Assembly (NCBI GenBank): GCA_016840465.1
Contig: JAEOSH010000016.1
Coordinates: 8,926-40,925, forward strand
Origin: Candidatus Baldrarchaeum yapensis
Lineage (GTDB): Archaea; Asgardarchaeota; Baldrarchaeia; Baldrarchaeales; Baldrarchaeaceae
Direction of reading: 5' to 3'
DNA length: 32,000 nt
The stretch's first letter is position 1. Each line of letters opens with the position of its first letter. Positions 5,452 through 16,871 of this stretch are shown in pieces. The position numbers and the translations under genes are program-made. Under the pieces are notes generated by a model. The model was not told the DNA's origin and did no database searches. It worked only from the letters and a program-made list of their open reading frames with translations.

Positions 5452-7127
5452 TTACTGCAAAATTGCGCCTTTTGAGGGCGACGTTACATATTTCCGATAT
5501 CTTGCAAGAATGGTTCCTTCTTTCACCCTATTCTCGACCTCTCGTGGTACTCTCCACTCCTCTCTTCGCCTTCCTAATTCTTTCTCGGGAACGAGAAGTT
5601 CGAGTTTCCTTCCGGTATATCTATGAGTATCTGATCCCCGTCCTCAACTAATGCTATAGGCCCGCCCTCGTATGCCTCGGGCGGTACATGACCTATGCAT
5701 GGACCTCTTGTGGCGCCGCTGAACCTTCCATCGGTAACCAGTGCAACTTTATCCCCCAATCCCGATGAAATAACCGCTGCCGTCACCGATAGCATTTCTC
5801 TCATGCCCGGTCCTCCCTTTGGCCCCTCGTACCGTATTACGATCACTTCACCCTCTTTTATTGTCCCCATCAACGACGACGTTGAACGCCTCCTCTTCGG
5901 AGTTAAATACGCGGGCCACACCCTTGAACTTGAGCATAGACTTGCTGACGGCGCTCTGTTTTACAACAGCCCCTTCTGGTGCAAGTGTACCATACAATAT
6001 CGCTATGCCGCCCTCTCTCCTTACAGAATTGGAAACTGGTCTGATGATGTCGGTATTTCCCACGCGAGCGTCTTTGACATTTTCCCATACAGTCTTTCCG
6101 GTCACTGTAAGGCAGTTTTTCTTAATTAATCCCGCATCGCCCAGTACCTTGAGCACTGCTGGTACTCCACCCGCACGGTCGAGATCCTCCAAGTGATATG
6201 GACCGGAGGGACTGAGTGCTGTAATTGTTGGCACTTTTCTGCTAATTTCGTCAAACGTTTGCAGGGAGAGTTCCACACCAGCGCACTTTGCAATTGCGAT
6301 CAGGTGGAGTATCGTGTTTGTTGAACCACCAAGCGCCATATCAACGGCTATTGCGTTTTCAAAGGCGTCCTCTGTAAGGATATCAGATGGACAAACATTC
6401 TTTTCAAGCAACTTCATGACACATCTTCCCGCGTTGCGGGCAACGTGTATCCTTCTTCTATCAACGGCCGGAATTGTCGATGAGCCGGGAAGCACGAGTC
6501 CTAGCGCCTCGGTAAGGATGTTCATCGTATTTGCGGTAAAGAGCCCGGCGCAACTTCCGCACGTGGGCATAGCACATCTTCCGATTTCATTTAACTCCTC
6601 CTCGCTCATAGTTCCTCTTTTAGCGGCTTCAACTACCTCGAATAGGTCCTTGAGATCAATTTTTCTGCCTTTAAAGGTTCCGGCAAGAGACGGGGCGCCA
6701 TTTATGAAGATCGATGGAATATCCACCCGAGCTGCGGCCATCAGCATTCCTGGGACTATTTTATTGCAGTTAGTTATGAACACGGCGGCATCAAAGCGGT
6801 GCGCCTCGAGCATTATCTCGACCGCGTCAGCGATTATGTCCCTACTGGGCAGGGAGTAACGCATATCAATATGCCCCATAGCTATTCCGTCACAAACTGC
6901 GATAACATTGAACTCCAGGGTACCCCGCCCATTTCCCTTATGCCTTCTCTGGCGGCTTCCGCAATGCTCCTAAGGTGTATATGGCCCGGAGAGGTCTCAC
7001 TATAACTGTTGATGATTGCAATCAACGGTTTGCGGAAATCCGAGTCGTCGAGTCCGATTGCCCTAAAGAGCGCTCTATGAGGGATCCTCTCGGGGCCTAC
7101 GTGTACGGTAACACTCCTATGCTTCAT
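5452..7127 (-). pseudogene. ilvD: Dihydroxy-acid dehydratase split by three single-base frameshifts (pseudogene or assembly error)
   Basis: Pieces 6882-7169, 5848-6879, 5574-5921 and an unlisted tail ending TAA at 5452-5454 join into 558 aa after +1 at 6918-6920, -1 at 5865-5868 and +1 at 5610-5611. Motifs: [51 protein letters not shown] precedes ATG 7127. Confidence 0.9.
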
Positions 7128-7255
7128 AGATCCTCTCTCCTGATCTTTCATCTCTCTTCCATATACCATATATGAATGATTTGTTGGGGTCGGTGGATAA
7201 TTTGTTTAACGCTAACCTTTCAAATTTCAGCCCACTTCTTAACGAAGGTGATGCT

Positions 7256-7754: not shown

Positions 7755-8459
7755 TTAGATTAGGCGGCTTATTATTGCCAAGAATACGACCGCCAGCAAT
7801 AACATCGCAATTGCGGCTATTATCAACAATATGAGTTCGCTCTCGGAGGGGTAATGAGGCATCTGCTCGGGGTGTGCTAGAAGTTCACCAGCTGTTTCTG
7901 GCGATATCACATCTCCCTTCACCGATGCACTTATTATGCTAATTATCGGTTCGGGCTCCTGCAACAGGTCGCCATAAGCAGAGGGATCCGCCGGGTCTTC
8001 TCCCGCATGCTTTCTAAGGAAATAGCGCACCCACACCTCCTCGAGCAACGCACTGGATAAAAAATACTGTCTCACCTTATCGGCGTATACTACGATATTG
8101 TCAGTCACCTGATCGTACATTATGGAGTAGGTAATGTTTCTTATCCTCACAAAGAACGGTCTGTTTTTCAGATAGTTTTTTAACGACCTCCAAAAGTCCT
8201 TGAATGCTATACGAAGGGCGTACTCGAGGTCGGTGAGATGTGATGGAACTTTTACTGGGCTTACTTCTATGAGGTCTCGGACGGTGAGGGGTTTCATGCA
8301 GAGGGGGCATGTTCCCTTTTCTTTTAACCACTGCATGATATGATTCTTATGACCCTTTACGTGACAGTACGGGCATTCTACGATGGCATCGCTTTCCTTC
8401 AACACCTTAAAACATATTATGCATCTCTCCTGCTCGCGATCCTCGGCTCCTTCGCTCAT
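7755..8459 (-). CDS. RING-variant zinc-finger protein with C-terminal transmembrane tail (putative E3 ligase)
   Basis: C-x2-C-x12-C-x2-C-x4-H-x2-H-x3-W-x6-C-P-x-C at residues 13-54; a hydrophobic C-terminal stretch of about 25 aa. Confidence 0.8.
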   Translation of the reverse strand: MSEGAEDREQERCIICFKVLKESDAIVECPYCHVKGHKNHIMQWLKEKGTCPLCMKPLTVRDLIEVSPVKVPSHLTDLEYALRIAFKDFWRSLKNYLKNRPFFVRIRNITYSIMYDQVTDNIVVYADKVRQYFLSSALLEEVWVRYFLRKHAGEDPADPSAYGDLLQEPEPIISIISASVKGDVISPETAGELLAHPEQMPHYPSESELILLIIAAIAMLLLAVVFLAIISRLI

Positions 8460-8706: not shown

Positions 8707-9924
8707 GTGTTACTATCGCGTGGAAGGCTTCGGAAAGGGGGAAGAGTGGTGCTAGGAACCAGCATCGGGCGGGAGGTCACGGAAGTACTTAATAGGTATC
8801 GCATACACCCCGACACTCTGGCATCGTGGTTTAGATTGATAAATTTAAACGATAAACCATCCATTGGAAAAACTGAGCGACGTATCATGGCAATTTTGGC
8901 CGTTGCTCCTACCTTATCGAACAGGCAAATATCAAGAATTATCGGGATAAGTGAAAGTAGTGTTGCGTATCACATGAAAAAGTTGAGGAATAAGTATGGC
9001 CTATGCGTAATGTCGCATTTTAACCCCTGTTTGGCGGGTTTAGAAAACATCCTAGTAATATTAAGAATGCCTCGTGATCGAGAGAGCAGAAGATTCCTCG
9101 GAAATGTCAATTCAAAGTTTTTGATGCTTGCGATGCGAGGGTCTCCTGACAGCGAAAAATATCAAGGCTATCTGCTTATGTATGCCGTTCCGAGGAATAT
9201 AGGGACTAAAAGATTCATGAAGGAGTTCTGTGACGTTATCGGATCATACAAAGGGGAGGTCTATGCCTTCACGATCAAGGGTGTGTTCACGGGAATCAAC
9301 TTCGCGCTTCCGTATATTAGCACGTGGAAAGTTCCGCGCAACTGCCGTAATTACGATGCTAGTGAACTGACTCATTTCCTTTCTGGGGACATTTTCTGGT
9401 ATTCCGATAATGGGCATATCAGAGATAAAATAGATCTTCTCCTTTTTCTGCTAAAATCATACGACTTCAAAATGCGAAGTTCACAACTTGTCACACTGAT
9501 GCACCGCATATTAGGCAAACGTCTATGTGATGCCGCTGTGAGGAGAAGAGTTAGGAAGTTGTCCGCAATGAACGCATGGAGACCCTTCATTTGTTTCCGG
9601 AGACTAGGGCTCGACTCTTGTGTTGTATTGAATTTAATAGGGGATTTCGAGACGGTTGCCAGCATAATTATGAGTGCTTCTTGTTGTTTTCCTCAGTACT
9701 TTGCGTACATTCACGAGAAGGGTGCAGTTTTGCTGATCAACGTCTCACGTGCACTACTGGGGGAGATCAGTAAAAGGATTATGTCATTTGTGGAGGGGTG
9801 TGATGATCACCATTTCCTTGTAAGCTACGACAATGCGTTACCCCTGCTCAGGCTAGAAGTCATTGATATGTGGAGCAACGAGGAGAGGGGATGGCAAGTC
9901 GCCAGCATTTTGCGGAACACTTAA
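8707..9924 (+). CDS. Tandem Lrp/AsnC-like winged-helix regulator (start uncertain)
   Basis: Two Lrp-like modules: ERRIMAIL..SNRQISRIIGISESSVAYHMKKL..NPCLAGL and DKIDLLL..DAAVRRRVRKL..FRRLGL, each followed by an alpha/beta region. Confidence 0.7.
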   Translation: MLLSRGRLRKGGRVVLGTSIGREVTEVLNRYRIHPDTLASWFRLINLNDKPSIGKTERRIMAILAVAPTLSNRQISRIIGISESSVAYHMKKLRNKYGLCVMSHFNPCLAGLENILVILRMPRDRESRRFLGNVNSKFLMLAMRGSPDSEKYQGYLLMYAVPRNIGTKRFMKEFCDVIGSYKGEVYAFTIKGVFTGINFALPYISTWKVPRNCRNYDASELTHFLSGDIFWYSDNGHIRDKIDLLLFLLKSYDFKMRSSQLVTLMHRILGKRLCDAAVRRRVRKLSAMNAWRPFICFRRLGLDSCVVLNLIGDFETVASIIMSASCCFPQYFAYIHEKGAVLLINVSRALLGEISKRIMSFVEGCDDHHFLVSYDNALPLLRLEVIDMWSNEERGWQVASILRNT

Positions 9925-10027
9925 AGATTTGGTCGAGATTATAAACACTGTAGCTGGTAAATACCGATGCAGAATACTTTTTACGTGTCTTCGACCTTTG
10001 AAACTTTAACCACATGGAGGAGTTATC

Positions 10028-10891
10028 TTGAGCCAAAAGTATCGTGGGGCCCTTGCGGACCTTTTAGGGAATACGCTCGGAAGGGACAAACGGCTTCTGA
10101 TAGCGGATGTATTTCTTCGCCATATCGAGGCAACTTGTAAGAAATGTCTTTCGAACAGAATAGTATGTGCGACAAGGCCCATTTGCGGAAAGGACAGGCC
10201 ATTTTGCTCGATTCTCGTAGAAATAAATGCTAAAGATCTCATTAGTGAGTTCTGTTACAGGTGGATGCTGGTATCAGTACGGCAGACGATTCTTGGGAAG
10301 AAAATACTTCAAGACTTGTGCGTGTACGCGAAAGACCTGCCACATAGTATTGATAGGAAGAAAAAGCGCCTTCCGGAGGGTACCTCTTTTAATAAAATTG
10401 TCGAGGATCTCGCTGAGGCTTTGCGCGCGAATCACATAAAGTTTCATGTCGAGAACAGGGACATGGTGGCCGCGATCGTCTCAGACAATTTCCTAGTATT
10501 GATAGATGGCGAAAAGGGAATTGCCCGGGTGAATCCGCGTAATTACGCGTTTTCGAAAAAGGAAGAAATAGAGGCAGTTTTGAAGGGAATGTCCGAGATA
10601 GAGGGAGTTAAACTTGATATTCGAGAGGAGTTCGAGGGTCTTTTGATATTAGAATTTGAACTTTCCAAGATCTCGCCACATCGCGCCGATGAAATAAAAG
10701 ATTTACATGTGCCGCCCGAACTTGAAAAGTTCTGCCACCACATCGGGGTTACACGCTCAGATAACTCCGTGAAGGTGATAATAGACCTGCTGTTGAATCC
10801 CTTTCCGTCCATAACGGCTGGTGAGTTGATGAAGGTTTTTGATGTGATAAAGAAGCTGAGGACGGTGTTTTCTGCTGAGGAGAGGAGGTAG
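10028..10891 (+). CDS. Hypothetical protein with an N-terminal Cys cluster; first gene of a 4-gene operon
   Basis: TTG start after a GGAGGA SD; CKKCLSNRIVCATRPICGKDRPFC ... FCY; 5-nt gap to the next gene. Confidence 0.7.
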   Translation: MSQKYRGALADLLGNTLGRDKRLLIADVFLRHIEATCKKCLSNRIVCATRPICGKDRPFCSILVEINAKDLISEFCYRWMLVSVRQTILGKKILQDLCVYAKDLPHSIDRKKKRLPEGTSFNKIVEDLAEALRANHIKFHVENRDMVAAIVSDNFLVLIDGEKGIARVNPRNYAFSKKEEIEAVLKGMSEIEGVKLDIREEFEGLLILEFELSKISPHRADEIKDLHVPPELEKFCHHIGVTRSDNSVKVIIDLLLNPFPSITAGELMKVFDVIKKLRTVFSAEERR

Positions 10892-10896
10892 AGGAA

Positions 10897-13800
10897 TTGA
10901 AGGATGAGAAACCAACTTTAACACTCGTGCGGCAACTAGGAATGAGTGATAGAGAGGCTACCATTTACGAGGTTTTACTCAGATCGGGTGTGCTGACATC
11001 AGGTGAGATTTCCGCATTAACAGGTTTTCCGCTGGACGATGTTGAACGGACATTGGCTTCATTAGCGAAGAAAAATGTGGTTTTGAAGGTTCCAGGGATC
11101 ATTGACCGTTACGTGGCGATGCCTCCATTTATGCTCCTTGGCGAGACTTTGAGTACATGTAGGGAGGAGATTTTGAAGGCATATAAGCAGTTTTCTGACG
11201 TCATAAAGCGCATAGAGGGAGAAATAACGAAATTAGCCAAAGATTTCAGGGAAAATTCGAAGAAAATACTGGAGGATGGTGTTAAAACTGTTAGTGAGAG
11301 GATTCCCGAGTTAATGAAGGACTTAGAGGAAATCTTATCTGAGAATCTCGAAAAGATCTCAAAGGACTTGGAAGAAGTTGAGAATAAGATAACCAACGTC
11401 ATAGAGAGAGCCATAAAAGGCATATCGTCGGTTGTGAAGGAGGCTAGAAGTAGCGCGGAGCGAAGCATTTCGAACGGAGAAAGAGCTTTAGTGGGAGTAC
11501 TAGAAAGGACATTAGAGGAGGTAAATTCGACGATTGAGGAAAAGAGTGCGGAGCACGCCTCCGCCGGTCAGGAAGTTCTGGACGGTTTCCATGTGGAGGT
11601 CGAGAGGATAACGGGTGATGTCAGTAAGCAACTTGAGGCCCTCAAAAGCAACCTCATTGAGAGGGTTTCGGGAATTCGATCCGACTTCTCAGAGACTTTT
11701 AAGTCCATGCTCGAGCGCTTTGAACAAATTTCTGCAGAGTTCACAGAGGTTTTGGAGGGATTAATGACCGGCATCGAGAGGGACGTACCGGGATCGCTTG
11801 GAAAGGTTCTCGAATTGCACCGAGACGTATTAGCAAAGACTAAGGAGAATATCAGTACTACCCTGTCAGAGGTCTTATCGCGTGTCCAGAGCGGAATTGC
11901 GTCCATGAAACGTGATATAACTACTTTTCTTACGGAGACCACAATGACTGAAGAGCAACAGCTCGGAGACCTTGAGAAGATGATCGATAACTTGCTCAAG
12001 GAGTTGCGAGAGACGTTGGATAACGCCTTTAATACAATTTCCAGTACAGTTGCCGGTGCAACAAAGCACGCGAAGACAATGATAGAGCAAAACGCGAGAA
12101 GCCTAGTCGTTAAGGTCGCGCAAGTTGCCAGATCGTTCATAAATGCCTATTACACACACGCTGTGAGGTTCCGAGACTCTGTGCTGAGCGCCATTTCAGA
12201 CGAGTTTGATGCTCTAAAAGTGGAGTTTGACGGATTAAGGAGGAATCTCACGGAGAAAATAACGGATATTCTTGAAACCTACAAGAGCGGCTCTAATACT
12301 GTGATCAGAGAGATAGAAGGATGGGCCAGCACCACATTTTCGGATATAAGTGCAAATATGGAGAAATTCAGGTCAGATATCATTAAGATTATAAAGCAGA
12401 CGAGAGATGCCGTTAATAAGAGAATTTCATCGGTTGCGATTGATAAAGATGTTTTCGGTGATCTCAATCAGGGACTGGCGAGGATTTCGGATCTTGCAAA
12501 AAGAGCGCTTACTGGCATCATTAGTAATCTTGAGACCCATATCAACAGGCTCACTGATGTGTTGCACAGTTATATCTCCTCTCAAATTTCAAGCCTGCGA
12601 GCAAGAATTGAGGCAGCCATGCATGAGGTGGAGGGGGCATCGGATCCCGTTAAATTTATGAGCGAAACTCTTGCGGAAATTGAGGAAATAATACGTACGA
12701 TGGATGAGGGACTGAAGCAGAAGGTGAGTTTCGAGTTATCGAGGATGCGTCAGTCCGTTGACAGACTTTCATTAACCCTAGAGAGCGATGTTGACACCTG
12801 GCAGAGGGATTTGGAACAACTTGTCGAGGACATTATGGGACAGATAAACTCGATGCTGAACTTTTCGGTAGATGTCGTGACTCGCACAATGGAAACTGCC
12901 GAGAGGAGAATTTCTTCATCTATGGAAGGTTTACAAAAACTCGTGAGCAGGTTAATAGAACACACGAAGAAGCAGATAACATCCATAGTCAGTAGCGAAA
13001 TCAGGGGGATTGAAAGAGAGACTGAAGCCTTCATTAACGGGCTGAAGGATACTTTTTCAAAATTCATCGAAAGTATTTCGATGCTCGGTGGAAGAATTGG
13101 CGAGAAGATAAAGTCGGAACTTGAGTTTCTGAAGAGAATGGAGGAGATGGGCAAAAAGTTGGATGATGCGATAATGGAGGTGTTTTCAGAGTATCAGAGT
13201 TCAATGGTCAAGGTCTTCGACGAGAGCGAGAAGGCAATAGAGTTGGCATTAGACAGCCTCAGGGAGTTAGACGAGGAAATAATAAGCGTCAGGAAGAGTT
13301 TTGAGAAGTCTTTCAAGTCGTTCATCGATGATGTGAAGCGCAGGATCGACGGCGCTGTAAAAGCCCTAGAGGGATGCTTTGATGACGTTAGTAAAAGCAT
13401 AGAGGATGCCATTCAGGAGGTGATGAAGATAGTTTCGCAAAATACCGACAGTTTAGAGAGGAGGGTCGATGGATTATTCACCAGTGCAAGAAAAGAGATT
13501 ATAGATAGGGCGAAGGAGAGGATAAGCAAATGTCACGATAGGATAATCAAAGTTGGTAGGCTGTACGCGGAAGAATTGAAAACCGAGTCCTCCGCTATGA
13601 ACTCGCTCCTCTCTGATATGCAGAACTCCCTTGATGTCTTAATATCGACTGGTACTAAGAATATTCACACTACGATGACCTCGATAGAGGAAAAGGTTAG
13701 AAAGATGATGAGTGAACACACTGTAAAGGTAAAGAGCGCTCTTGATGACGTTAAAAAGAAGTTAAATGAAAGTATAAACAACCTCGTTGCCAGCAGTAAA

Positions 13801-14613
13801 GATCTGCTGTCTAATATGAGTAAGGAAATAGGATCGACGCTAGACAACGTGAAAAAGAAGCATGAGGAGCTAGGGACATCCATCGGGGCGGAAACGACCT
13901 CTACATTATCGAAAGTTTCGCCTCGTGTGTCTTCCCTCCTCGAGGAGTTTCGAAGAAAAGTAGAAGGAGATTTGATGTCGGTTGCAAACGAAATATCTCT
14001 GAAGGCGAAGGCCCTTTCGCTGGAACTCGATGGCGCGGCATCGCAGATAATAGAGGGGGTTTCACGCGGATTGAAGCTTGCTCGCGTGGATGAACATATA
14101 AATGCTCTTGAGGATGAGATGAGAGATGCAGAAAACCTTATAAAGAGGCTACTGGAGGTTTCCGTGAGCATTGGACCATATCTTGCGTCTAAAACGTGGT
14201 ATTGCATCGGAGTAAATGCCATAATTGCACGTATCAGAGACATAATATCGAGAGCGGAGGAGAAGCTTGCAGTAATGGCTCCACGGTTTTCTATGCTTGC
14301 AGATCTTGTGGATCCGCTATTGGAGGCCGGGCAGAGATGTAGAATTTTCGTGATAGCGGAAGTAAGCGATGATGATGACCTGAAGGTGGCGGGCGAACTT
14401 TCAAGATCTGGGAACATACGAGTGAAAAGGGCGGCAACGGGCTCCTATTACTGTGTCCTAAGGGACGACAAAGAGGTTTTAGTGGCCCCGATGGAAGACG
14501 AGGATCGTGAGGCCATGGCTTTCACATCGCAACTGGATGGTTATGTATCGCTGATAAAGGAGATCTTTAACTTCTTTATGAGAAAGAGCACTAGGGTGAT
14601 GCAGAAAAAGTGA
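10897..14613 (+). CDS. Giant TrmB-like protein: N-terminal HTH, about 1000-aa 11-residue-repeat helical rod, C-terminal TrmB effector-like domain
   Basis: Residues 1-77 match the TrmB HTH pattern (LGMSDREATIYEVLL..TSGEIS..YVAMPP). Residues 1099-1238 match the TrmB PLD-like domain (G..AI..RI.DIISRAEE..RDDKEVL). The middle is Pro-poor with hydrophobic residues at positions 1, 4/5 and 8 of an 11-mer. Confidence 0.8.
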   Translation: MKDEKPTLTLVRQLGMSDREATIYEVLLRSGVLTSGEISALTGFPLDDVERTLASLAKKNVVLKVPGIIDRYVAMPPFMLLGETLSTCREEILKAYKQFSDVIKRIEGEITKLAKDFRENSKKILEDGVKTVSERIPELMKDLEEILSENLEKISKDLEEVENKITNVIERAIKGISSVVKEARSSAERSISNGERALVGVLERTLEEVNSTIEEKSAEHASAGQEVLDGFHVEVERITGDVSKQLEALKSNLIERVSGIRSDFSETFKSMLERFEQISAEFTEVLEGLMTGIERDVPGSLGKVLELHRDVLAKTKENISTTLSEVLSRVQSGIASMKRDITTFLTETTMTEEQQLGDLEKMIDNLLKELRETLDNAFNTISSTVAGATKHAKTMIEQNARSLVVKVAQVARSFINAYYTHAVRFRDSVLSAISDEFDALKVEFDGLRRNLTEKITDILETYKSGSNTVIREIEGWASTTFSDISANMEKFRSDIIKIIKQTRDAVNKRISSVAIDKDVFGDLNQGLARISDLAKRALTGIISNLETHINRLTDVLHSYISSQISSLRARIEAAMHEVEGASDPVKFMSETLAEIEEIIRTMDEGLKQKVSFELSRMRQSVDRLSLTLESDVDTWQRDLEQLVEDIMGQINSMLNFSVDVVTRTMETAERRISSSMEGLQKLVSRLIEHTKKQITSIVSSEIRGIERETEAFINGLKDTFSKFIESISMLGGRIGEKIKSELEFLKRMEEMGKKLDDAIMEVFSEYQSSMVKVFDESEKAIELALDSLRELDEEIISVRKSFEKSFKSFIDDVKRRIDGAVKALEGCFDDVSKSIEDAIQEVMKIVSQNTDSLERRVDGLFTSARKEIIDRAKERISKCHDRIIKVGRLYAEELKTESSAMNSLLSDMQNSLDVLISTGTKNIHTTMTSIEEKVRKMMSEHTVKVKSALDDVKKKLNESINNLVASSKDLLSNMSKEIGSTLDNVKKKHEELGTSIGAETTSTLSKVSPRVSSLLEEFRRKVEGDLMSVANEISLKAKALSLELDGAASQIIEGVSRGLKLARVDEHINALEDEMRDAENLIKRLLEVSVSIGPYLASKTWYCIGVNAIIARIRDIISRAEEKLAVMAPRFSMLADLVDPLLEAGQRCRIFVIAEVSDDDDLKVAGELSRSGNIRVKRAATGSYYCVLRDDKEVLVAPMEDEDREAMAFTSQLDGYVSLIKEIFNFFMRKSTRVMQKK

Positions 14614-14619
14614 TGGGCC

Positions 14620-15918
14620 ATGGCGGATGTAGCAGTATTACTGGCATATATGATACTACTGACCCTTGTTTACGGCGCGATAGTCAGCGAAGTACTTCCG
14701 AAAAGCGTAGCCGCTCTCCTAGGGGGAATTGCGGCAATAATAATCGGCAGGGTTGCGGGAATATTTGATGTTAGCGAGATAGTGAAATTCATAGACATGA
14801 AGGTGCTTCTCATAATAATCGGCATAATGATGTTTGTTGAAGTTGCTAGACGAAGTGGTATGTTTCAATTCATCGCACTATATATTATGAAGTTCGTGGG
14901 CTACAAGCCGAGAAGGGTGCTCATAATTCTATGTGTGCTGTCGGCAATGCTGTCAGCATTTATAGGGAACATAACGGCGATGATTATAATCATATCTGTC
15001 ACGACATTAACCCTGATACCACTGGGGGCAGACCCGATACCATTTCTCATTGCGATTTCCATAGTACTCGATCTTGGGGGCACAATAACTCTTATCGGGA
15101 GTCCTGTATCGATACTGATAGGATACTCGGCCAACTTCTCGTACATAGACTTTCTGATCTATTCGGCTCCCCTTGCGATGATACTTGTTTTGGTGCATAT
15201 TCTATTTTTCCTGACGGTATTCAAGAAAACGATTCCACCTAGGTTTGATGTTGATCCGGAGATACTCGCTGAGTTGGATCCATGGATGGTAATAACAGAT
15301 AGGGATCTCTTTTACAGATCGATTGCCATCTTCATCCTCACGGTAGTTCTCTTCATGACGTACGAGTTTCTCGAGTTATCTGCCGAGTTTGTTGCCCTAA
15401 CGGGTGGTATATTGATGCTGTTCCTTGGATTGCGTGCAAGTGATCCCAAAGAGGTTTTTAAAGGAATTGAGTGGGAAGTAATCTTCTTTCTGCTGGGACT
15501 CTTTCTGCTGATGGGTGCGATTGAGAAATCAGGGCTACTAGAAGTGATTGCTGAGCAGGTAGTCCACCTCACGGGCGAGAACCTTCTCCTTACAATAATC
15601 TTAATAATGGGAGTGGCGTGTGTCCTTTCAGCGATGATCGATAACATACCAGTAACACTGATGATGATACCAATCATAAAAACAATCGTCACCATGAGTG
15701 GTCTCCCAGCGACCCCTCTCTGGTGGGCACTCTTGTACGGCGTAATACTGGGTGGGAACCTGACGCCTATCGCCTCTCCCACAAAGATAATTGCTCTTAC
15801 TGTACTCGAGAGAGAGGGATACAAAATTTCGTTTAAGGAGTTCATGAGGTATAGCATTCCGACTGTGCTCCTTTCCATGGCTGTAGCGGTTCCGTACCTC
15901 ATGAAATTAGCGGGGTGA
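14620..15918 (+). CDS. ArsB/NhaD (SLC13/P-protein-like) ion transporter superfamily permease
   Basis: About 11-12 hydrophobic segments; LSAFIGNIT, LGGTITLIG, LSAMIDNIPVT, LGGNLT, and the C-terminal ISFKEF motif. Confidence 0.88.
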   Translation: MADVAVLLAYMILLTLVYGAIVSEVLPKSVAALLGGIAAIIIGRVAGIFDVSEIVKFIDMKVLLIIIGIMMFVEVARRSGMFQFIALYIMKFVGYKPRRVLIILCVLSAMLSAFIGNITAMIIIISVTTLTLIPLGADPIPFLIAISIVLDLGGTITLIGSPVSILIGYSANFSYIDFLIYSAPLAMILVLVHILFFLTVFKKTIPPRFDVDPEILAELDPWMVITDRDLFYRSIAIFILTVVLFMTYEFLELSAEFVALTGGILMLFLGLRASDPKEVFKGIEWEVIFFLLGLFLLMGAIEKSGLLEVIAEQVVHLTGENLLLTIILIMGVACVLSAMIDNIPVTLMMIPIIKTIVTMSGLPATPLWWALLYGVILGGNLTPIASPTKIIALTVLEREGYKISFKEFMRYSIPTVLLSMAVAVPYLMKLAG

Positions 15919-16871
15919 TCTTATTGAGTGAGAAAAAGGCTAAGGCCAGAGAAGTGGAAGGACTGATGGAAAAAATAATGGAAGAAGTCAGTAGGATGAT
16001 GCCGGTCGTTGAGCCCCTAAAGCTAGCATTCGAGGTTCCATCCATCCAACACGTGGTTGCGCTTACGGGTGGTGAAAACCTCCACCCTAACACGGCAACC
16101 TTTGCTAAGGAGATTGCAAAGCGTCTGAATGCGGAAATCACAGTATTATTTCCCATGCGTGAGATCACTCCTGATGATATCTTTAATGAACGTGCCGAGG
16201 AGGTTGCAAAGTATGCTGATGTGCTAAGAGAAGAAGGGATAAGAGTGAGGGAGTCTACCTGTTTTAAATATTCGGAATTAAAGGAGGTAGTTCAAGAGGT
16301 TAATACCAGAAAGGCCGATATGGTCCTTGTCCCCAAATGTTTGGGGGAGGAGGAAGTTAAGGAGAGATGCCACATAAGCGATATCGTTCAGGTTCTGACA
16401 ACCGAGTTGAACGTCCCGCTCTTCATAATAAGTGAGGAGGATATACTGCCCGTATCAATGCTTGATAATCTGCTCGTTCCAGTCAGACGTACTGACAGAA
16501 AGTTCGGAAACGTCGCGTTGAGCGCCGCACTTGCATCTAAGAAGGGTACTATTGAGATTTTCTCCGTCATAACTGAAGATGAAGTCGAGTCAGGGATGGA
16601 GAGTAGCGATAAGCAACGGAATCAGGTTATTAAATCGTTAAGAGAAAGAAGGGAGGCGTTCGTCACTTCTGTGGAAAAGGCTCTAGCAAAGTTCGTTTCC
16701 CCACAACGGATAAAGATGAGTGTGACTGTGGGTCATCTGGATGAGAAGATCATTGAACGCGCGGAGGAGACCAGGAGCGTGATCGTTGTCAATAAAGTGG
16801 GGAAAGTCGGAATAACCGGAATTTTAGAGGCATTAATGAGGGACGCAAAAGCTCTTATAATAGTGCCCTAA
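15915..16871 (+). CDS. Tandem universal-stress-protein (USP) domain protein
   Basis: Two USP-like halves (HVVALT..AKEIAKRLNAEITVL..ADMVLV..VPLFII; NLLVPV..ALIIVP); 4-nt overlap with the permease stop. Confidence 0.7.
   Translation: MILLSEKKAKAREVEGLMEKIMEEVSRMMPVVEPLKLAFEVPSIQHVVALTGGENLHPNTATFAKEIAKRLNAEITVLFPMREITPDDIFNERAEEVAKYADVLREEGIRVRESTCFKYSELKEVVQEVNTRKADMVLVPKCLGEEEVKERCHISDIVQVLTTELNVPLFIISEEDILPVSMLDNLLVPVRRTDRKFGNVALSAALASKKGTIEIFSVITEDEVESGMESSDKQRNQVIKSLRERREAFVTSVEKALAKFVSPQRIKMSVTVGHLDEKIIERAEETRSVIVVNKVGKVGITGILEALMRDAKALIIVP

Follow-up and report, generated by a model that had tools for sequence, protein, structure and literature searches.

A giant TrmB-like rod protein encoded beside a conserved cysteine protein in Asgard archaea

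Introduction

In Thermococcales, the TrmB protein is encoded together with the trehalose/maltose transporter genes, which it represses, and in Thermococcus and Pyrococcus its gene lies within the trehalose/maltose ABC transporter cluster. TrmB and its relative TrmBL2 (PDB 5bpd, 5bqt, 5box; 3qph) share a plan in which a PF01978 domain at the N-terminus and the N-subdomain of PF11495 at the C-terminus are joined by a helix, which in the solved chains of 264 and 342 residues we take to be a few tens of residues long. Here we analyse a stretch of 32,000 nucleotides from Candidatus Baldrarchaeum yapensis, an Asgard archaeon (contig JAEOSH010000016.1, positions 8,926 to 40,925 of the forward strand; hereafter the window), in which a TrmB-like gene with this same plan encodes a joining helix of about 960 residues of hendecad repeat, and directly follows a gene for a protein with a conserved set of cysteines (the Cys protein). 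These are the first two of four co-oriented genes:

10028-10891, + strand: gene 1, Cys protein, 287 amino acids (aa), open reading frame (ORF) with a TTG start
10897-14613, + strand: gene 2, giant TrmB-like protein, 1238 aa, ORF with a TTG start
14620-15918, + strand: gene 3, permease of the CitMHS/ArsB superfamily, 432 aa, ORF with an ATG start
15915-16871, + strand: gene 4, divergent tandem universal stress protein (USP)-like protein, 318 aa, ORF with a GTG start

The locus thus differs from the described TrmB and TrmBL2 proteins in the length of the rod, in a similarity to the solved structures that is marginal (E = 0.002) and confined to the N-terminal domain, in having a dedicated partner gene, which encodes the Cys protein, and in a protein family limited, in the searches made, to one archaeal phylum. 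As in the Thermococcus and Pyrococcus cluster, a TrmB-family gene is clustered with a transporter gene, but here the transporter is a CitMHS secondary permease accompanied by a USP, the linkage is found in one taxonomic order, and an effector sugar pocket was not detected in the TrmB-like protein. USP genes are known to pair with transporters, for example TeaD with the TeaABC TRAP transporter of Halomonas elongata; likewise, the USP gene of the window directly follows the permease gene, with a 4-nt overlap, whereas its tandem product lacks the ATP-binding motif and the permease is of another class.

Of all known prokaryotes, Asgard archaea are the most closely related to eukaryotes, and the organisation of their cell interior and chromatin is poorly understood. 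The gene pair described here offers a concrete starting point, consisting of a phylum-restricted, near single-copy Cys family, a rod partner of about 70-145 nm by prediction, and a specific predicted interface between the two.

Results

A two-gene order recurs across Asgard families

Of the roughly 16 families that make up the phylum, 10 showed the order of a Cys gene followed by a giant TrmB gene (families, genomes and loci are cited by our own numbers, prefixed f, G and L). In a neighbourhood sample of 41 related genomes, where Cys homologues were sought with a single-protein query, giant TrmB-like reading frames of roughly 650-2100 residues were nearly universal, and the Cys gene lay directly upstream of the giant TrmB gene and co-oriented with it in 16 of the 21 genomes that had a Cys homologue. 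Another 20 loci, drawn from additional families, added the pair in f19, f20 and f26, as well as in further genomes of f18 and f8. The window genome itself (G000; 2.27 Mb in 100 contigs, 96% complete) yielded a single giant TrmB, the product of gene 2. The remaining genes flanking the pair are conserved within families only. The recurrence of the pair bears out the alternative offered by an earlier, sequence-only reading of this DNA, in which conservation belongs to the first two genes as a unit and the presence of the transporter pair is incidental. The partner encoded directly downstream of the Cys gene varied between lineages as follows:

f1, f2, f3, f7, f8, f16, f18, f19, f20 and f26: giant TrmB rod, 836-1310 aa
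f9 (10 of the 10 loci examined), f23 and the L045 lineage: HEAT-repeat protein, 330-426 aa, with a Lys/Glu-rich coiled-coil tail
f12, f15, f17 and f21: no consistent partner

In Pfam, the HEAT partner (loci L052-L058, L068 and L045; for example L053:8444-9688) weakly matched SCD and condensin subunit 1 (Cnd1; at most 31.5 bits, cut-off 26.4), and no orthologue of the partner was found in the window genome with the HEAT query used. The presence of other neighbours, or of none, in some lineages indicates that the Cys protein is not tied to TrmB rods.

Other neighbours of the Cys or giant TrmB genes were recorded in particular families. A DUF4139 protein of 340-473 aa is encoded directly 5' of the pair in f8 and f18 (L028:5864-6895, L071:5898-6920, L070:5743-7164, L042:11500-12888), and in genome G039, where the Cys gene was not found, a DUF4139 protein stands directly 5' of the giant TrmB. 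Family f13, which has no Cys family, carries a different protein of 280 aa in divergent orientation beside the giant TrmB (L043:6516-7358 and L044:6154-7011, both on the - strand); it contains 16 cysteines, with six CxxC motifs towards its C-terminus, and hidden Markov model comparison showed no homology to the Cys family. In a genome of f21, an intein-bearing (LAGLIDADG) ribonucleotide reductase large subunit gene adjoins the Cys gene (L067:9304-12993, - strand).

A TrmB-family protein with a hendecad rod

Gene 2 encodes two recognisable end domains separated by a long helical repeat:

10933..11127, + strand: TrmB winged helix-turn-helix (wHTH), residues 13-77, PF01978
11164..14046, + strand: helical rod of about 960 residues (about 90-1050), 11/3 hendecad repeat
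14197..14532, + strand: Regulator_TrmB-like (PLD-like) half-domain, residues 1101-1212, PF11495

The N-terminal match is clear (E = 1.2e-8; 35.1 bits against a cut-off of 25.6), and the wHTH head may be expected to bind DNA. The C-terminal match, obtained when the last 200 residues were scanned alone (E = 4.5e-6; 26.5 bits against a cut-off of 22.2), spans profile positions 3-114 of 233, leaves about 26 residues behind it, and was also made by 8 of 16 giant TrmB homologues. The second half of PF11495, the sugar-binding C-subdomain, was undetected in the giant TrmB C-terminus; TrmBL2, a chromatin protein, presumably also lacks this subdomain of TrmB. The NCBIfam equivalogs for TrmB, TrmBL1 and TrmBL2 scored only 16-24 bits on the protein, against cut-offs of 530-650, and the nearest solved sequences were those of TrmBL2 (5bpd; E = 0.002) and TrmB (3qph; E = 0.004). 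Searches of the C-domain against the PDB, by sequence or by profile, returned coiled-coil noise only.

From the end of the wHTH at residue 77 to the start of the PF11495 match at residue 1101 there are about 1000 residues, and the short TrmB pairing helix is absent. The periodicity of the rod peaks at 3.66-3.68 residues rather than at 3.5, its core positions are spaced 4-3-4, and residues 100-510 comprise 37 hendecads with zero phase slips. The giant TrmB rod of the sequence-only reading is upheld by two end domains above their cut-offs and a hendecad core pattern between them.

A helix break, EGASDP at residues 579-585, falls at 0.49 of the rod length, and the arms that flank it are of equal total length. 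The phase shifts of the rod, near residue 520 and at 730-800, are not mirrored around this break, and a mid-rod break was seen in only about 9 of 15 homologues. In an AlphaFold2 (AF2) model of a full-length homologue of 1028 residues, both end domains were well folded, the C-terminal half-domain as an alpha/beta fold at pLDDT 77-88, and the rod appeared as one helix at residues 80-878 with pLDDT of about 55; at such low pLDDT, the model neither shows nor excludes that the rod folds back. Its predicted length would be about 70 nm if folded back or about 145 nm if extended.

Proteins of the SMC/Rad50 type also combine a very long rod and the capacity to bind DNA with a small partner whose gene lies nearby, and the HEAT protein that accompanies the Cys gene in other Asgard families, with its weak, generic Cnd1 and SCD matches, is a further point of likeness. 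The giant TrmB differs from them in having no ATPase head, its ends being a wHTH and a TrmB-like domain (no ATPase family was among its Pfam or NCBIfam matches), in a repeat that is hendecad rather than heptad, and in that fold-back was not predicted in the AF2 homologue model.

We also considered whether the rod might be a lipid-binding, apolipoprotein-like helix. We attribute its Pfam Apolipoprotein match to the 11-residue periodicity, and rejected this as the main reading because the hydrophobic stripe is narrow (of 11 positions, three are strong and two half) and the helices have no proline punctuation.

A family of cysteine proteins restricted to the phylum

The Cys protein matched no family in Pfam, NCBIfam or the PDB sequence families, in the ESM Atlas it gave nothing usable by features and only low structural TM scores, and word-based homologue searches with it and with the giant TrmB protein found almost nothing. 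From 1.84 billion proteins, a profile built from 18 homologues retrieved 108 representatives, none of them fused; their lengths were similar or shorter, and the shorter ones look partial. Of 201 genomes sampled from the phylum, 142 encoded the family, nearly always in single copy, as did 71 of the 86 that were of high quality. Two parts of the protein concern us here:

10136..10255, + strand: Cys cluster C37-x2-C40-x6-C47-x5-C53-x22-C76, from the homologue alignment; putative Zn or Fe-S site
10550..10888, + strand: C-terminal alpha/beta domain, residues 175-287, from the AF2 model; predicted docking surface for the rod C-terminal domain

The cysteines are the most conserved feature of the family: among 40 homologues, C37, C40 and C76 were each present in all 40, C53 in 38, and C47 in 34; none had fewer than four cysteines in the N-terminal part of the alignment. 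Such a pattern points to binding of Zn or an Fe-S cluster. The description of gene 1 as a metal-binding orphan in the sequence-only reading thus holds for its lack of a known family and for the conserved cysteines, the metal site itself being putative. The AF2 model (pLDDT 83.7, pTM 0.83) shows a helical N-terminal Cys domain followed by two alpha/beta domains. As in the rod and in the USP-like protein, no 19-residue stretch resembling a membrane helix was present (maximum mean Kyte-Doolittle 1.25-1.43 in the three).

In its C-terminal domain (residues 175-287), the Cys protein resembles the protein-binding alpha/beta fold of class I type III secretion system (T3SS) chaperones and YbjN (for example 1jyo SicP, 2xga Spa15, 5fr7 AmyR), with VIA Z 7.2-7.8 and a root-mean-square deviation of 3.0-3.7 A over 99-111 aligned residues. 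The differences are considerable: identity is 5-16%, Z lies in the chance range, no sequence family links the two (the YbjN family of Pfam did not match), and the Cys protein carries two additional domains, one N-terminal with the cysteines and one in the middle. The best Foldseek match was a designed protein.

A predicted contact between the Cys protein and the rod

We predicted the complex from three chains, the first 190 and the last 200 residues of the rod protein and, as the partner to be scored, the Cys protein. The median ipSAE was 0.63, compared with 0.00 in all three controls; 58 of 80 solved complexes and 2 of 110 mismatched pairs reach this mark. The runs shared at least 63% of their contacts, with a partner pLDDT of at least 80. 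Once the rod C-domain was swapped out the score dropped to 0.00, placing the contact on the TrmB C-domain and not on the wHTH piece. In the model, strands 199-257 of the Cys protein meet rod residues of about 1123-1231, inside the TrmB effector-like domain, to which the Cys-protein C-domain is accordingly predicted to bind. Of the pairwise interfaces suggested by the sequence-only reading, the one between the Cys protein and the rod C-terminus was predicted by the model, and the one with the wHTH piece was not.

Spacing, starts, permease and USP-like protein

The four genes are separated by 5 nt, 6 nt and then a 4-nt GTGA overlap, as first read from the sequence, and this spacing suggests that they are transcribed together. 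The TTG starts of genes 1 and 2 are each preceded, 7-9 nt 5', by a Shine-Dalgarno-like GGAGG or GAGGAGG, and the homologue alignments of both proteins begin at the same residues. The GTG start of gene 4 is less certain: an alternative ATG at 15966, with GGAAGGA upstream, would leave a gap of 47 nt and no overlap. Within the 103-nt gap 5' of gene 1 we noted one promoter-like element:

9937..9944, + strand: TATA-box-like ATTATAAA, read from the sequence

This ATTATAAA is a possible archaeal promoter of the gene cluster. The stretch occurs in DNA runs of hydrothermal-vent, sediment and seawater metagenomes, and no RNA run was listed as containing it.

Gene 3 matches PF03600 (CitMHS) over profile positions 2-336 of 336 (E = 1.9e-68; 231.5 bits against a cut-off of 31.9), has about 11 hydrophobic segments and represents a short form of CitMHS; among substrate models, MamN, DASS and ArsB all scored under their cut-offs. 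Gene 4 falls marginally short of PF00582 (23.9 bits against a cut-off of 24), its halves matching weakly (E = 0.02 and 0.045), and a regular-expression search found the ATP-binding motif G-x2-G-x9-G[ST] in neither half. Its sister-family orthologue (L049) is a clear tandem USP (75.2 bits, E = 9.9e-21, two stretches); in the window protein itself, the tandem USP named in the sequence-only reading is a match just below threshold.

Discussion

We consider it probable that the Cys protein and the giant TrmB act together as a DNA-anchored rod module, which would serve as a tether, as an element of chromatin architecture, or as a regulator with metal or redox input, and to which the permease and the USP are a lineage-specific addition. 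The core of the locus would then be a two-gene module specific to Asgard archaea. Gene 2 would encode a DNA-binding protein of the TrmB/TrmBL2 type in which a hendecad coiled-coil rod takes the place of the short pairing helix and separates a winged-helix head from a TrmB effector-like half-domain at the opposite end. Gene 1 would encode a soluble protein whose conserved cysteine site could hold Zn or an Fe-S cluster, and whose C-terminal alpha/beta domain would dock on the effector-like domain of the rod; docked there, it would act as a cap or input subunit at the position where canonical TrmB binds sugar. In the taxonomic order of the window alone, the module is joined in a tight cluster with the CitMHS permease and the tandem USP, which would be a passenger or a regulated target. 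If the rod serves as a spacer or scaffold anchored on DNA, it would represent a new type of chromatin or cytoskeletal element in archaea; if it is a regulator only, it would still be an extreme and unexplained elaboration of the TrmB family. Full-text searches of the literature found no description of such giant TrmB coiled-coil proteins or of their Cys partner, and we see in the pair the TrmB family in a new architecture, joined by a new partner family.

Several observations weigh against this proposal. The Cys gene stands without a TrmB neighbour in four families and with a HEAT partner in three lineages, while giant TrmB rods without a detectable Cys gene occur in f13 and in G039 of f18. 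The resemblance of the Cys-protein C-domain to T3SS chaperones and YbjN, at Z 7-8, is middling and in a range common by chance without kinship. The residues at the predicted interface are no better conserved (0.475) than the rest of that domain (0.53), and the ipSAE calibration applies only roughly to this complex, because the alignments were shallow and custom-made and three chains were used.

A wider version of the same idea, to which we also assign a low probability, would make the Cys protein an Asgard hub, its metal domain binding a common target and its variable C-domain recruiting long scaffolds, namely giant TrmB rods in most lineages and HEAT and coiled-coil proteins elsewhere; the result would be a previously unknown, DNA-anchored scaffold or tether inside the cell, about 70-145 nm long and coupled, in the taxonomic order of the window, to the permease and the USP.

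The cluster might instead be governed by an ordinary local regulator, with the giant TrmB and the Cys protein as its metal or redox co-sensor controlling their own operon, including the permease and the USP, and with the rod as a lineage oddity that has no role of its own. A TrmB-family wHTH and an effector-like domain are indeed present, the TrmB gene adjoins a transporter gene, TrmB is known as a transporter-linked regulator, and OxsR of Haloferax volcanii has been described as a thiol-based regulator of the TrmB family (PMC9426492). We nevertheless judge this explanation unlikely. It is difficult to see why a plain repressor would retain a rod of 836-1310 residues in 10 families, the pair is mostly not beside a transporter, and the effector-like match is the half of its profile without the sugar-binding part. 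In addition, no palindromic operator was found in the upstream gap: TTATAA aside, the gap 5' of gene 1 contains no operator-like inverted repeat.

The proposal with which the sequence-only reading began, a single machine of four genes in which the permease and the USP sense the state of an ion or solute and the Cys-capped rod links that signal, or the membrane, to the nucleoid, is one to which we give a low probability. It draws support from the tight spacing in the window, from the CitMHS gene of the cluster being the only one found in the window genome (one match in G000), and from the retention of the four-gene order, at 19-54% identity, in two deeply diverged families of one taxonomic order. 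There, the arrangement appears as TrmB-CitMHS-USP on contig C39 of G003, as CitMHS-USP in G001, and in G004 as Cys-TrmB-CitMHS at one contig end and CitMHS-USP at another. Outside that order, G065 of f19 carries a CitMHS gene in divergent orientation beside the pair, and G027 of f17 carries one 3.6 kb from a lone Cys gene, which is at most suggestive of a link. Against these stand the other eight families with the pair, in which no permease or USP is adjacent, G065 being the sole exception, and its congener G042, which has the pair without a CitMHS neighbour. Homologues of the 318-residue USP were found in 4 of the 41 genomes, all within the order of the window, and TrmB and CitMHS lie about 250-280 nt apart in the sister family, leaving room for a separate promoter. 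What remains of the four-gene system is thus a conserved local arrangement within one order, not a general one across families.

The metagenome-assembled genome G004 (9% contamination) contains the CitMHS fragments of the cluster twice, on contigs C47/C281 and C214/C290, and is probably two strains binned together.

Least probable of all is an adjacency without partnership, in which the Cys protein is a housekeeping metalloprotein, independent and nearly universal in Asgard archaea, its gene simply tends to stand before genes for long helical proteins, and the predicted interface is an artefact of modelling: the Cys gene alone or with other neighbours in f12, f15, f17 and f21, the unremarkable conservation of the interface and the rough calibration of the complex would fit it, but order, strand and tight spacing recur in 10 families with little other synteny, the complex scored far above its three controls, and in other lineages the downstream slot again holds one conserved partner, the HEAT protein.

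Other features of the window

No tRNA or Rfam family was found in the whole 32-kb window. Upstream of the cluster, at 8707-9924 on the + strand, lies a co-oriented gene for a protein of 405 aa with an HTH_24/AsnC-type wHTH at residues 55-95 and about 300 further residues unassigned; it ends 103 nt 5' of the Cys gene and is not conserved beside the pair elsewhere. The same holds for the BtpA, NurA and HerA genes, and we rejected all four as parts of the module. The BtpA gene lies downstream of the cluster, as does a NurA-HerA pair (17782-20726, + strand) with an overlap of about 55 nt between its two ORFs.

A RING-finger protein (zf-RING_2, E = 2.7e-7) is encoded at 7755-8459 on the - strand, 1.5 kb upstream of the cluster, and proteins with RING domains are also encoded 4-7 kb from the pair in loci of f8 and f18; this recurrence may be due to chance, as the matches consist only of the RING domain of 50 residues. 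The window genome also encodes an ESCRT-II protein above the Pfam cut-off, as did 0 of 14 control prokaryotes, and the ESCRT-II and RING-finger genes fit an Asgard archaeon.

Further upstream, the ORF for a dihydroxy-acid dehydratase (5848-6879, - strand) matches its profile from position 52 onwards and retains only the first third of the C-terminal domain, and an ORF of 95 aa lies immediately beside it on the same strand (6882-7169, - strand); from this arrangement, the dehydratase gene may be split or frameshifted.

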